Shown: positions 3,701 through 22,010 of the stretch, in pieces
Position numbering within the stretch: position 1 is the first letter of the stretch
Layout: each line of letters begins with the position of its first letter
Assembly (NCBI GenBank): GCA_023485505.1
Contig: JAMCZN010000041.1
Coordinates: 1 to 23,857, forward strand
Length of the DNA: 23,857 bases
Direction: 5' to 3'
Source: Candidatus Marsarchaeota archaeon
GTDB lineage: Archaea; Micrarchaeota; Micrarchaeia; Micrarchaeales; Micrarchaeaceae
Position numbers and translations under genes: made by a program
Notes under the pieces: model-generated
The model's input: only the letters and a program-made list of their open reading frames with translations
Database searches by the model: none
What the model was told of the DNA's origin: nothing

Positions 3701-4861
3701 TCATGGCTGCATCCAGTCAATCTCATAATACTCGTATTCGCTCTTTGGAAGGCTAATGCGCCTTATCTTGTAATAGGTCACTGCAGTTTCCCTGTCGGCT
3801 ATGGCAACAATGAGCTCCAGCCTGTGCTCCTTCGCTTCGTTTATTATGGCCGAAAGCTCGGCTCCGCCTATGAACTCGTCTTCGCTTATGGACAGCATGG
3901 CGAACCTTGGCCTGTCCTTTCCGGGGGTCTCTATGTTCCCATCCTTCCTGTGGTACAGTACGAAATCCATCAGAAGCTTTTTCTTCCGGCTTTTTCCCGG
4001 GATGGCAAGGATGAACGTCTTCCTTACGGAATGCGCGACCCTTATGGCGCGTGCCCATTCTGAAATGAGGAGCTTAGCGTCCCTTGGGAACACGTGTATG
4101 ACGTGCTTTGAATGCACCCAGTCTTCGTTTCCCCTTATTGGCCTTGCGCCTGGAAAATAAATCCTGAAATGCGTGCCGAACTTGAAGCCCGTCTTCACAA
4201 CATAGCCCTTGCTCCTCCAGTCCGCATAAACCTGATACAGCTTTGGAAAATCCTTTCGTCTCTTTGTTGCCATTTTTATTATCTCCGATTTGCTGTAGTT
4301 CCTTACGTTTAGGGACTTGTTTTCCATAAGGAAAATGGTTTCGTATGCGTCAAGCTTGTTTAGTATGCCCCTTTCGCTTATCTTGTAGGTGCCGTATTGC
4401 CCGAACCATTGTTCGCTATATATCTCCTTGCCCTTTTCCGAATCGTCCACTATGCACATAAGGTCTTCGGGAAAGAATAGCCCTTCAAGCCTGTAGTTTT
4501 TGAGCTTGAATTGCGATGATGGGTAACCCTTTATTGGGGTTTTGTTCCCATCCTTTGACAATTGGATCTCTTCTGGCTTCTTTATTATCAGTCCCCTGTC
4601 CCTCCAGTCCTTGTATGTGAAATATCGTGCCATTAGCTTTCCGGAAAATCCGAACCTTTCGACAAGCCCGTTGAAGTGAAGTTTTTCCCCGTTGTCTCTG
4701 CATTCGGCATTTCTGACGTCAATAAGGTATAGGGCTTCTTCTGGGCTGAGGTGCAAAGTCCCATCTTTAAGAGTGCCTATATGGCCCTTCATCAGTATGT
4801 CTTTTGACGACTGGTCAGTAACGACTACCCTGTTCGTATCTCTTATTTCAAGTAAAAGCAA
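3701..4861 (-). CDS. endA: tRNA-splicing endonuclease EndA, 386 aa, multi-unit fused form.
   Basis: The N-domain motif HLSPEEALYL is present. The catalytic-domain motif is LYQVYADWRSKGYVVKTGFKFGTHFRIYFPG ... HSKHVIHVFP. An upstream degenerate copy, ARYFTYKDWRDRGLIIKKPEE, indicates an internal duplication with one pseudo-catalytic unit. The C-terminus reads LELIVAIADRETAVTYYKIRR. The track start is TTG. At 386 aa the protein is larger than the roughly 180-aa alpha4 and roughly 290-350-aa alpha'2 forms. Confidence 0.8.
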   Translation of the reverse strand: MLLLEIRDTNRVVVTDQSSKDILMKGHIGTLKDGTLHLSPEEALYLIDVRNAECRDNGEKLHFNGLVERFGFSGKLMARYFTYKDWRDRGLIIKKPEEIQLSKDGNKTPIKGYPSSQFKLKNYRLEGLFFPEDLMCIVDDSEKGKEIYSEQWFGQYGTYKISERGILNKLDAYETIFLMENKSLNVRNYSKSEIIKMATKRRKDFPKLYQVYADWRSKGYVVKTGFKFGTHFRIYFPGARPIRGNEDWVHSKHVIHVFPRDAKLLISEWARAIRVAHSVRKTFILAIPGKSRKKKLLMDFVLYHRKDGNIETPGKDRPRFAMLSISEDEFIGGAELSAIINEAKEHRLELIVAIADRETAVTYYKIRRISLPKSEYEYYEIDWMQP

Positions 4862-10413: not shown

Positions 10414-10539
10414 CGCCAGGGTAGGGATTTGAACCCTAAAGCCCCGAAGGGCACCGGTTTGCCTGTTTCGCATCACTAATCAGCTCTTGATATTTTAAAA
10501 ACTCAAGACCGGCGCATTACCGGATTCTGCCACCCTGGC
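10414..10539 (-). tRNA. tRNA-Ser(UGA) with a 42-nt intron at the canonical 37/38 position.
   Basis: I folded the cloverleaf by hand. The acceptor is GCCAGGG/CCCTGGC with discriminator G73. The anticodon stem is CCGGT/ACCGG and the loop is CT-TGA-G. A long variable arm (GCCC-UUCG-GGGC) marks it as class II. The T-arm is TAGGG-TTCAAAT-CCCTA. The intron forms a canonical bulge-helix-bulge. Exon CTTG (positions 32-35) pairs with intron CAGG. The two 3-nt bulges are AG|T and CA|A. An intron-internal UUUU/GAAA helix is also present. Confidence 0.85.
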
Positions 10540-15687: not shown

Positions 15688-16479
15688 TCAGACTTGCGAA
15701 CGCTCTGCCATTATTGGCGTCCTTCCGCCCTCTACCTTGGCTTCGAATTCCTGCACGCTGTGCTGGAACTCCGAATACTCCTTTATCTCTCCCCTTGCCT
15801 TCATGACCTCTCTTGCCAATAGGAAATAGATGAACGCAAGCGACCTCCTTCCGCGGTTGTTGGCAGGTATTATCAGGTCAACGAACTTTGTTGAGTTGTC
15901 CGTGTCGCTCAATGCGATTATTGGCACGTTCTTCATGCTCGCTTCCTTTACCGCTTGCTTTTCGTTTCTCGAATCGCTGATAAGTATGAGCTTTGGCTCC
16001 ATGTAGTCCTGCCTGTGGGGGTTCGTGAATATTCCTGGTGTCACTCTCCCCTTTATGAACGTGGCCCCTATTATGCTGGCGAACTTCTCGGCAGCGTATA
16101 TCGCGTATATCCTTGAAGCGGTGACCACTATCTCCTTTGGATTGTATGCCGCGAGCATTGTTGCGGCTGTTTTTATCCTTGAATCTATCGTCTTGAGGTC
16201 TAGCAGGTAAAGACCGTCCTCTCTTACCTTGTAAATGAACTTCTTCATTCCTGGGCTCCTCGTCTTTGTCGCTATGTGTATTCCGACTTCCAGATATTCA
16301 TTCTGGTCTACGAGGAAATCTCCAACGCTCCTTTGCGGTTCCGGCTCTGCTCTCTTTATCTCTTCCTTGATTTCTTCTATGTCGGTTGCCTGCTGCTCTG
16401 CTGCGTCTTCCATGCCTTCCGCTTCAGTTGTCTCTTGTCCTTCGACGATTTCCTCATTTTTTGCCATCATAAACACCAT
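15688..16479 (-). CDS. rps2: 30S ribosomal protein S2 (uS2) with an acidic N-terminal extension.
   Basis: The core YLEVGIHIATKTRSPGMKKFIY...LYLLDL... is typical of archaeal uS2. The annotated start at 16479 sits 2 nt from the tRNA-Pro 3' end. The true start is therefore probably Met4 or Met5 at 16470 or 16467. Confidence 0.85.
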   Translation of the reverse strand: MVFMMAKNEEIVEGQETTEAEGMEDAAEQQATDIEEIKEEIKRAEPEPQRSVGDFLVDQNEYLEVGIHIATKTRSPGMKKFIYKVREDGLYLLDLKTIDSRIKTAATMLAAYNPKEIVVTASRIYAIYAAEKFASIIGATFIKGRVTPGIFTNPHRQDYMEPKLILISDSRNEKQAVKEASMKNVPIIALSDTDNSTKFVDLIIPANNRGRRSLAFIYFLLAREVMKARGEIKEYSEFQHSVQEFEAKVEGGRTPIMAERSQV

Positions 16480-16480
16480 T

Positions 16481-16568
16481 TGGGGCCGCCGAGATTTTCA
16501 GCCGAAGCATTTGAACTCGGGTCGCTACCACCCCAAGGTAGAAGCCTACCAAGCTAGCAGACGGCCCC
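16481..16568 (-). tRNA. tRNA-Pro(GGG) interrupted by a 15-nt intron in the T-loop (non-canonical position 59/60).
   Basis: Folded by hand. The acceptor is GGGGCCG/CGGCCCC with discriminator A. The anticodon arm is CTACC-TTGGGGT-GGTAG with anticodon GGG. The T-stem is CCGAG/CTCGG and the T-loop is TTCAAAT. The T-loop is split by GCTTCGGCTGAAAAT, which lies at plus-strand positions 16494-16508. The pre-tRNA forms a perfect bulge-helix-bulge. Exon TTCA pairs with intron TGAA as the central 4-bp helix. Two AAT bulges carry the splice sites. The intron tip is GC-UUCG-GC. Removal gives a 73-nt mature tRNA. The D-stem is weak, with only three pairs plus a U10-U25 mismatch. Confidence 0.75.
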
Positions 16569-16599: not shown

Positions 16600-16800
16600 T
16601 CATTTCTTGTTTATCGTTATAAATTCATCTATAAGCTCGACATTGCTTATGAACATCCTCCTGCAGCAATAGCGCTTTACGCCAAGGTCGTCGAGCACCT
16701 TTGCCGGATCTTCCTTTTCCTTTACCGTGCGCTTTTCGTATTCTTCCCATTTATCGGCAAGAACCGCGCCGCATGTAAAGCACCTTACAGGCATCATCAT
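16600..16800 (-). CDS. rpoN: DNA-directed RNA polymerase subunit N (Rpb10 homolog).
   Basis: [13 protein letters not shown]...RYCCRRM carries the zinc-binding CxxC...CC motif. Length is 66 aa. Confidence 0.9.
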
Positions 16801-21168: not shown

Positions 21169-21256
21169 GTGTGGTGTTGTTCCTGAAATTCCAAATGGCT
21201 TTATACCTTATTGTATCATAAGTAGTGAACATACTGGACTTATTCTGCTGATATGT

Positions 21257-21331
21257 AGCGGGGTGGGGTAGTCTGGAGTGCCCGTCGGGCTCATAACCCG
21301 AAGATCGGTGGTTCAAATCCACTCCCCGCTA
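21257..21331 (+). tRNA. Initiator tRNA-Met (CAU).
   Basis: It has the A1:U72 pair (AGCGGGG...CCCCGCT-A). The anticodon stem is TCGGG/CCCGA with three consecutive G:C pairs next to the loop CTCATAA. The T-arm is GGTGG-TTCAAAT-CCACT. The archaeal initiator hallmarks are the A1:U72 pair and the three G:C pairs. A T-rich tract follows. Confidence 0.85.
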
Positions 21332-22010
21332 TTAATCCTTATTTTGTTTGGAGAAATGATATTTTAGTTTTGTTGTTCTTTCTTTGTTTTACCTTGATTA
21401 GCCCAAACATGATGCTTCTGCTCTACCCCACAATTCCACTAATAAATCCTAAGTTCTTAAAAAATTCCATTATTATATTGGTATTTTGGTTTGATTGAGA
21501 TGTAATATTATAAGAGAAGCCACGAATACCGGAACTTTGGGGTGTATACCCTTGTTTGTCCACTTACAAACATACAGTACTAACAATGCAATATATCACA
21601 AACTCGATAAGCTGAGGGCAGCGCAGTATGCCGCAGGTTCACTAAGCAATCTATTCAACTCACATTTCGGAGCTGGTGCTGTTTTACCGAACGACGCACA
21701 GACTGGACTCCTTACAGTCCACACTATTGGGATTGCTACAAGCAAGAGGCCAGAAACCAGGAATGCTAGGAAATAACCTATTGCAGAATATTGCCGAATT
21801 AGAATACCTATAGTTCCAGCGGCAAACCACAGCGGGGGCCTGCCACGACCTTAGCCGATCTGCAAAATGAAATTGCACAAAACTACTCCGATATCCTTTA
21901 CTTCCACTAAACGTTGGTCTAACTATATTTATAATAGTTGACATATAGATTAATCTCGGAATCTACGCGTAACTACGTTACGGTGTAAGGATCCCTGTTA
22001 TACAGGTGAG

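Follow-up and report, generated by a model that had tools for sequence, protein, structure and literature searches.

The question raised by positions 16481 to 16568 of the archaeal DNA analysed here (the whole stretch of 23,857 nucleotides, hereafter the window) is whether they hold a working tRNA gene whose T-loop is interrupted by an intron, and which enzyme would remove such an intron. The initial annotation had read the stretch as a tRNA-Pro(GGG) with a 15-nt bulge-helix-bulge (BHB) intron in the T-loop at position 59/60, and this core reading has the support of the sequence itself, of 37 orthologues, and of what has been published on the sister organism ARMAN-2. Read from 16568 to 16481, the stretch is considered, with a probability of about 0.9, to be a functional intron-bearing tRNA-Pro(GGG) gene of a Micrarchaeota (DPANN) archaeon, whose intron would be removed by the genome's own epsilon2 endonuclease. 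Pfam matches to RadA, RNA polymerase subunit D, L13, S9, S2, TFE, and aIF2-alpha give the window an archaeal context, and the closest relatives of the neighbouring S2 protein are all labelled Micrarchaeota.

The tRNA gene and its surroundings

The span given by the initial annotation is exact to the base; its coordinates stand, and the strand has to be specified as minus, as judged from the sequence. The gene and its parts are as follows.

16481..16568, minus strand (read 16568→16481): pre-tRNA-Pro(GGG) gene, 88 nt, with G1 at 16568 and A73 at 16481
16510..16568, minus strand: 5' exon, tRNA positions 1-59, comprising the acceptor 5' strand, D-arm, anticodon arm, variable loop, T-stem CCGAG, and U54-A59
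16495..16509, minus strand: intron, 15 nt, UGCUUCGGCUGAAAA, between A59 and U60, with boundaries placed by the BHB rule
16481..16494, minus strand: 3' exon, positions 60-73, comprising U60, CUCGG, the acceptor 3' strand CGGCCCC, and A73

The DNA of the gene consists of the 5' exon GGGGCCGTCTGCTAGCTTGGTAGGCTTCTACCTTGGGGTGGTAGCGACCCGAGTTCAAA, the intron TGCTTCGGCTGAAAA, and the 3' exon TCTCGGCGGCCCCA. Divided by element, the pre-tRNA reads GGGGCCG UC UGCU AGCUUGGUA GGCU U CUACC UUGGGGU GGUAG CGAC CCGAG UUCAAA[UGCUUCGGCUGAAAA]U CUCGG CGGCCCC A. The anticodon GGG lies at 16534-16532, and no CCA is encoded after the discriminator A73. When the 15 nt are taken out in silico, ARAGORN calls the 73-nt product tRNA-Pro(ggg); this call and the intronless orthologues described below uphold the earlier claim that a 73-nt tRNA-Pro(GGG) is left once the insert is removed. 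The spliced tRNA has U8, A14, G18G19, G53-C61, UUCAAAU, G37, and A73. The identity elements generally known for recognition by archaeal ProRS, namely the GGG anticodon with G35, G36, and G37, A73, and the pairs G1-C72, G2-C71, and G3-C70, are all present, as judged from the sequence, from ARAGORN, and from stem covariation.

Two genes flank the tRNA closely on the same strand.

16600..16800, minus strand: ORF of 66 aa ending in ...RYCCRRMF, which we take to be rpoN (RNA polymerase subunit Rpo10) from recognition of its sequence; it ends 31 nt upstream of the tRNA
15688..16479, minus strand: rps2 (ribosomal protein S2; Pfam Ribosomal_S2), immediately downstream of the tRNA

The GGTG ribosome-binding motif of rps2 begins 4 nt past the tRNA discriminator base, and a GGTG-N-ATG arrangement 3' of the tRNA is common to most orthologous loci. 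The listed rps2 start at 16479 is probably not the true one, which is more likely the ATG at 16470 or at 16467, both at a spacing that suits the GGTG motif (window 16465-16481). The orthologous loci have the same kind of coding end 8-40 nt ahead of the tRNA. Its neighbours thus enclose it in an rpoN-tRNA-rps2 unit, in which 3' processing of the tRNA would make the 5' end of the rps2 mRNA.

The bulge-helix-bulge motif

From 5' to 3', the T-arm of the precursor consists of CCGAG (h), UUCA (H), an AAU bulge, GC-UUCG-GC (h'), UGAA (H), a second AAU bulge, and CUCGG (h). It forms a strict hBHBh' (3-4-3) motif, in which a 4-bp helix lies between two 3-nt bulges, one on each strand, with a further helix on either side. 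In the following list, 30/30 for the bulges refers to the sequences with a 59/60 intron, the window counted in.

16512..16515, minus strand: 5' strand of the central helix, UUCA, exon, T-loop 54-57; 4/4 pairs with UGAA, and paired in 25/25 distinct orthologous sequences
16509..16511, minus strand: 5' bulge, A58 A59 / U, with the 5' splice site between 16510 and 16509; a 3-nt bulge in 30/30
16501..16508, minus strand: inner helix h' and loop, GC-UUCG-GC; 15 forms of the inner stem among orthologues
16497..16500, minus strand: 3' strand of the central helix, UGAA, intron; kept in 28/30 introns
16494..16496, minus strand: 3' bulge, A A / U60, with the 3' splice site between 16495 and 16494; a 3-nt bulge in 30/30

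The outer helix h is the 5-bp T-stem CCGAG/CTCGG, and h' is short, with 2 bp (GC/GC) closed by UUCG; Marck and Grosjean are said to have accepted in 2003 a minimum of 2 bp for h'. Each strand runs in the order helix, 4-bp helix, 3-nt bulge, helix, and the handedness is that of the canonical 37/38 arrangement, with the T-stem replacing the anticodon stem. Each motif part named by the initial annotation (TTCA/TGAA, two AAT bulges, and a GC-TTCG-GC tip) is found in the sequence.

BHB motifs are cleaved between the second and third nucleotides of each bulge, and this rule, applied to both bulges, sets the splice sites after A59 and before U60. The insert had earlier been written as GCTTCGGCTGAAAAT (RNA GCUUCGGCUGAAAAU) and placed after TTCAAAT. 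Because of a repeated T, removal of GCTTCGGCTGAAAAT and of TGCTTCGGCTGAAAA yields the identical product, and to that extent the description holds; the placement does not, as it would correspond to 60/61. The 59/60 junction, which the same annotation also stated, fits TGCTTCGGCTGAAAA between A59 and U60, the sole version that obeys the BHB rule.

A chance origin of this motif is unlikely, since about 0.2% of random 15-mers placed at the site give a 4/4 central helix with at least two inner pairs, and since the frame recurs in 29/37 orthologues. Minimum free energy (MFE) folding proved uninformative as a test of the BHB. In the nearest-neighbour energy model, the A/U-rich central helix is open in the MFE fold, which is more stable than the BHB conformation by 0.3 kcal/mol (-8.2 vs -7.9). 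An open central helix in the MFE fold is usual for BHB motifs; with the helix open, thermodynamics by itself does not predict the BHB.

Orthologous genes upstream of rps2

A scan of a genome collection with the S2 protein yielded 41 loci, and a tRNA-Pro lies just upstream of rps2 in 37 of them. These 37 orthologues, from other Micrarchaeota assemblies, were parsed for introns together with the window gene, giving 38 sequences.

No intron: 2/38 (L001, L002)
59/60 intron only: 16/38, the window among them
53/54 intron only: 5/38
53/54 intron and two extra bases at the 59/60 site: 1/38 (L039)
Both 53/54 and 59/60 introns: 14/38

Among the 37 orthologues, 29 have the 59/60 intron in the same BHB frame, with differing and compensating inner stems, and 20 have the 53/54 intron. 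All 30 sequences with a 59/60 intron share the 4/4 central helix and the two 3-nt bulges, and their introns are 12-32 nt long. UGAA is replaced in two of these introns, by UGAG and UGGA, and G·U pairs are retained in both. The inner stem ranges from 0 to 5 bp in its 15 versions, one intron having no inner stem. In a MAFFT alignment of 25 distinct T-arm-plus-intron sequences, 263/263 cells are in standard pairs (100%), compared with 20-54% when the partners are slid by 1-3 columns, and the first two inner pairs alternate between GC, CG, AU, UA, and GU. In the central helix, changes are confined to the intron side, the 5' strand being the invariant T-loop.

Five loci (L004, L005, L014, L016, and L023) have exons identical to those of the window gene at 73/73 positions (5' exon 59/59), and their introns differ and are 13-18 nt long. 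Four distinct introns are found in them, namely AGGAAUCCUGAAAA, AGGUUUCUGAAAA, UGCCAACGAGGCUGAAAA (common to L014 and L016), and AGCUAACGCUGAAAC. The BHB frame alone is constrained in the intron, as expected for a sequence that is excised. The T-arm of the intronless L001 and L002, CCGAG UUCAAAU CUCGG, is exactly the predicted spliced form. When 23 distinct mature sequences were spliced in silico, the cloverleaf was paired in 96.3% of cells, with 8 compensatory pairs in the acceptor, anticodon, and T stems; these compensatory pairs indicate that the gene evolves as a working tRNA.

The insert might be thought to escape splicing and to give the mature tRNA a larger T-loop or an additional arm. 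Such retention is extremely improbable. Among genomes with identical exons, the insert differs freely in length and sequence, while the spacing of the 3-nt bulges and the four nucleotides paired with U54-A57 do not change; a pattern of this kind marks an endonuclease site and not a functional part of a tRNA. Moreover, pairing of U54-A57 would abolish the T-loop, and the insert is absent from some orthologues. The source is a metagenome-assembled genome, which could raise the suspicion of an assembly or sequencing artefact; the likelihood of this is close to negligible, as 29 other genomes, each assembled independently, show this architecture with intron sequences specific to their lineages.

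In one subclade, two loci have only a 3' remnant of tRNA-Pro just upstream of rps2 (~3380-3402 in L018 and ~3955-3975 in L020). Each begins at roughly the 3' part of the intron (59/60), with …UGGAAAUCUGGGCGGCCCG in L018 and …AAAAUCCCGGUGGCCCA in L020. Upstream, on the opposite strand, lies an intact tRNA-Pro(GGG) gene with no intron, at 3140-3214 in L018, 3727-3800 in L020, and 3251-3325 in L024; in L018 and L020 its distance from the remnant is ~200 nt, and in L024 the gene is relocated and the remnant absent. A split or permuted tRNA was considered for L018 and L020 and rejected, as no matching 5' half occurs in those loci and an intact intronless gene lies on the other strand. The 3' pieces are best taken as remnants, left by what looks like a rearrangement that broke the gene at the intron.

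These two loci also give some weight to the view that the window gene is a disabled pseudogene, in which the 15-nt insert is never removed and tRNA-Pro(GGG) comes from another gene: there, a remnant stands beside rps2 and an intact intronless gene lies nearby, and the window covers 24 kb of its genome. On the other hand, the window gene is complete with intact stems, its exons equal those of five loci with differing introns, its insert keeps a perfect BHB frame, as ~0.2% of random inserts would, and compensatory stem changes occur among its orthologues. Disablement is therefore very unlikely, and an intron-bearing gene that is spliced is the preferred reading.

The orthologues offer some further observations. 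The central helix of the 53/54 intron pairs with the 5' strand of the T-stem, and the intron partner follows or tolerates T-stem changes: the pairing is CCUG/CAGG in L007, a compensatory change, and CUCG/CGGG in L028 via a U·G pair. The T-loop region of L039, UUCGAAAAU, has two bases over the normal number, exactly at the 59/60 intron site of its relatives; they may be what an imprecise loss of the intron left behind, or else a very short insert. A deep subclade (L031-L037, L041 and L036) has the anticodon AGG in place of GGG, in the loop UUAGGGR or CUAGGGC, together with one added base in the D-loop; its introns are the same, at 53/54 and/or 59/60. tRNAs with A34 are unusual in archaea. A tRNA-Pro(AGG) has been reported in ARMAN-4 and ARMAN-5 (Fujishima et al.; PMC3239211).

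The D-arm

The D-stem of the window gene is not a regular 4-bp stem and consists of 3 bp (G11-C24, C12-G23, and U13.G22), with U10·U25 mismatched. The initial annotation had pointed out this mismatch correctly, and had advised a check for a sequencing error or a second tiny intron. A sequencing error was rejected, as C9-U10 is common to 29/38 sequences: U8-C9-U10-G11-C12-U13 occurs in these 29, and A9-G10 in 7 others, giving G10·U25. A second tiny intron in the D-arm was rejected as well, since the spliced length is already 73 nt and C9-U10 is so widespread. Among the 23 distinct mature sequences, position 10-25 is unpaired in 15/23, and pairing is found at 11-24 in 23/23, at 12-23 in 21/23, and at 13-22 (U·G) in 23/23. 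The mismatch is, on this comparison of sequences, a trait of the lineage. It does not disqualify the gene because 3-bp D-stems occur in working tRNAs. Very weak D-arms are also known from ARMAN-2, in which tRNA-Pro(CGG) and tRNA-Pro(UGG) have a single Watson-Crick D-arm pair (Fujishima et al.; PMC3239211).

An alternative D hairpin of 6 bp with a 3-nt loop is possible in the derived C9-U10 forms (window 16545-16560, minus strand; positions 9-22), with the pairs C9-G22, U10-A21, G11.U20, C12-G19, U13.G18, and A14-U17a. It is favoured by the energy model over the cloverleaf D-arm and is 87.7% paired in the orthologues, with no covariation, and it consumes the universally conserved G18, G19, and A14. 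The standard 3-bp D-stem is kept as the working model.

Detection by tRNA finders

Default ARAGORN, run on the window, reports tRNA-Leu(GAG) and tRNA-Met only and misses the unspliced tRNA-Pro(GGG). With lowered thresholds, it gives a misfolded and truncated 69-nt 'tRNA-Pro' at 16495-16563, which is unusable. The Rfam tRNA model matches tRNA-Leu(GAG), tRNA-Met, and an intron-bearing tRNA at 10414-10539 in the window; at the unspliced tRNA-Pro(GGG) there is no match, even at E<=10 on a 451-nt slice. Among the orthologues, the intronless L001 and L002 score 51 and 49 bits with Rfam, and the intron-bearing genes of L004, L014, L010, and L017 go unreported. The remark in the initial annotation that standard finders miss such genes is thus well founded, with default ARAGORN and Rfam both failing here. 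CCU and CCC account for 31% of the proline codons in 15 of the window's genes with Pfam support, which creates a demand for a GGG decoder. If a genome of this kind were annotated without intron-aware tools, its decoder of CCU and CCC would seem to be missing.

Two other tRNAs of the window were noted. At 10414-10539 (minus strand) lies a class-II tRNA with a 42-nt canonical 37/38 BHB intron, whose central helix is CUUG/CAGG and whose bulges are AG/U and CA/A, the slash marking the cut by the BHB rule. Cut in this manner, it has the anticodon UGA, and its G73 and long variable arm identify it, on sequence features, as tRNA-Ser(UGA). Default ARAGORN misses this tRNA, low-threshold ARAGORN names it Ala(tgc), and Rfam gives it 45.7 bits. 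The tRNA-Met at 21256-21332 (plus strand) shows, in the Rfam alignment, an A1-U72 pair and an anticodon stem with three G-C pairs at its base; we take this to be the pattern of an archaeal initiator tRNA.

The splicing endonuclease

A candidate enzyme for the removal of the intron is encoded in the window.

3701..4861, minus strand: EndA, an epsilon2-type tRNA splicing endonuclease of 386 aa, 11.6 kb from the tRNA; Pfam tRNA_int_endo and tRNA_int_endo_N

The protein (MCL5430560.1) has its N-terminal Pfam domain at residues 10-66 and its catalytic domain at 205-288. Its residues 2-386 align with residues 3-387 of ARMAN-2 EndA (PDB 4fz2) at E 5.6e-164, and it has the three-unit single-chain layout (alphaN, alpha, and betaC; about 390 aa). 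The initial annotation had placed such an endonuclease ~12 kb off, which agrees with the position of this full-length epsilon2 homologue. [quoted passage not shown] In the ARMAN-2 enzyme, Y236/H251/K282 and K161 in this loop were shown to matter (Hirata et al. 2012), and the loop lysine K161 confers broad specificity. Since it is homologous over its full length to the ARMAN-2 enzyme of known structure, the window EndA is predicted to form a homodimer and to have cleavage activity.

The statement in the initial annotation that introns at this position require a relaxed-specificity endonuclease goes too far. In reviews, what links the (alpha-beta)2 and epsilon2 enzymes to broad specificity is their action on relaxed motifs (hBH, HBh'), not position as such, and the motif here is strict 3-4-3. 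With a strict motif, it is not established that this intron needs an enzyme of relaxed specificity, even though one is encoded in the window; no test of a narrow-specificity enzyme on a strict T-loop BHB was found in the literature.

Proposed processing

The tRNA is probably transcribed jointly with rpoN and rps2, since it starts 31 nt after the rpoN stop and the GGTG of rps2 follows by 4 nt. In the precursor, U54-A57 would pair with UGAA near the 3' end of the intron to form the strict BHB between the T-stem and the GC-UUCG-GC hairpin. With U54-A57 paired, the T-loop could not form, and the precursor should be inactive until it is spliced. The epsilon2 dimer would then cut both bulges, after A59 and before U60, which would give pieces of 59 nt, 15 nt, and 14 nt. 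Subsequently, the exons would be joined by an RtcB-type RNA ligase into the 73-nt tRNA, with the 15-nt intron released. RtcB is the RNA ligase of splicing in archaea; no RtcB ligase gene was seen within the window. End processing and the addition of CCA to the 73-nt tRNA would complete the maturation.

Comparison with known systems

ARMAN-2 (Candidatus Micrarchaeum acidiphilum): The closest known case is the pre-tRNA-Pro(GGG) of ARMAN-2, whose T-loop is interrupted by introns at both 53/54 and 59/60 (Fujishima et al. 2011, NAR 39:9695, Fig. 1C; PMC3239211). Compared by its published description, it shares with the window gene the tRNA, the anticodon, the phylum, a strict hBHBh' 59/60 intron, and an epsilon2 EndA, whereas it carries two adjacent introns and the window gene has the 59/60 intron only. 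In addition, the ARMAN-2 epsilon2 enzyme cut a 13-nt 59/60 intron from pre-tRNA-Cys in vitro (Fujishima et al. 2011; PMC3239211). The intron of that pre-tRNA-Cys resembles the window intron in its 59/60 position, its tiny size, and the full-length homology of the enzyme (E 5.6e-164); in contrast, it has a relaxed hBH motif and needs the ASL lysine, and the window intron is strict 3-4-3. The window gene is the orthologue, in a related genome, of this already described ARMAN-2 tRNA-Pro gene.

Crenarchaeota/Thermoproteales and Nanoarchaeota: Introns at 53/54, 56/57, 59/60, and other positions in these groups have the same motif and belong to the same position class, with endonuclease and ligase likewise inferred (PMC4090602). 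Their endonuclease is a heterotetrameric (alpha-beta)2 enzyme, unlike the single-chain three-unit epsilon2 enzyme of the window lineage. Non-canonical BHB introns were described by Marck and Grosjean 2003 and Sugahara 2008 (reviewed in PMC4090602). Both 53/54 and 59/60 are on the published list of non-canonical sites, in line with the earlier remark that introns at 59/60 are known in a few archaeal lineages.

Implications for tRNA introns in Micrarchaeota

The new biology of the locus is small, as 59/60 introns, the ARMAN-2 tRNA-Pro, and the epsilon2 endonuclease are all published. No survey of tRNA introns across Micrarchaeota was found in the searchable literature, and the distribution of genes with zero, one, or two introns may be undescribed so far, which would be an extension of known facts. 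In a rough neighbour-joining tree built from about 200 aa of S2 and lacking support values, the 59/60 and 53/54 introns occur in both the GGG and AGG clades, intronless and single-intron genes are scattered, and the nearest relatives of the window are the intronless L001 and L002. The pattern tentatively suggests two old introns with repeated losses.

A further reading is that the 59/60 intron, with its 53/54 partner, is kept widely in Micrarchaeota tRNA-Pro(GGG) because it is functional and not a neutral passenger. It is allowed by the introns in the GGG and AGG clades, by the turnover of intron sequence with identical exons, and by the break-point at the intron in one subclade that lost the gene at this site; slow neutral loss would account for the pattern just as well, and functional retention is unlikely. 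If it were true, a T-loop held closed until the cut would make maturation of tRNA-Pro in the rpoN-tRNA-rps2 transcript dependent on EndA; alternatively, the intron would shield the gene against integrating elements. The added value of the locus is comparative: the 38 sequences, with 0, 1, or 2 introns, identical exons, and fast-changing intron interiors, make up a usable natural series for the loss versus the retention of BHB introns.
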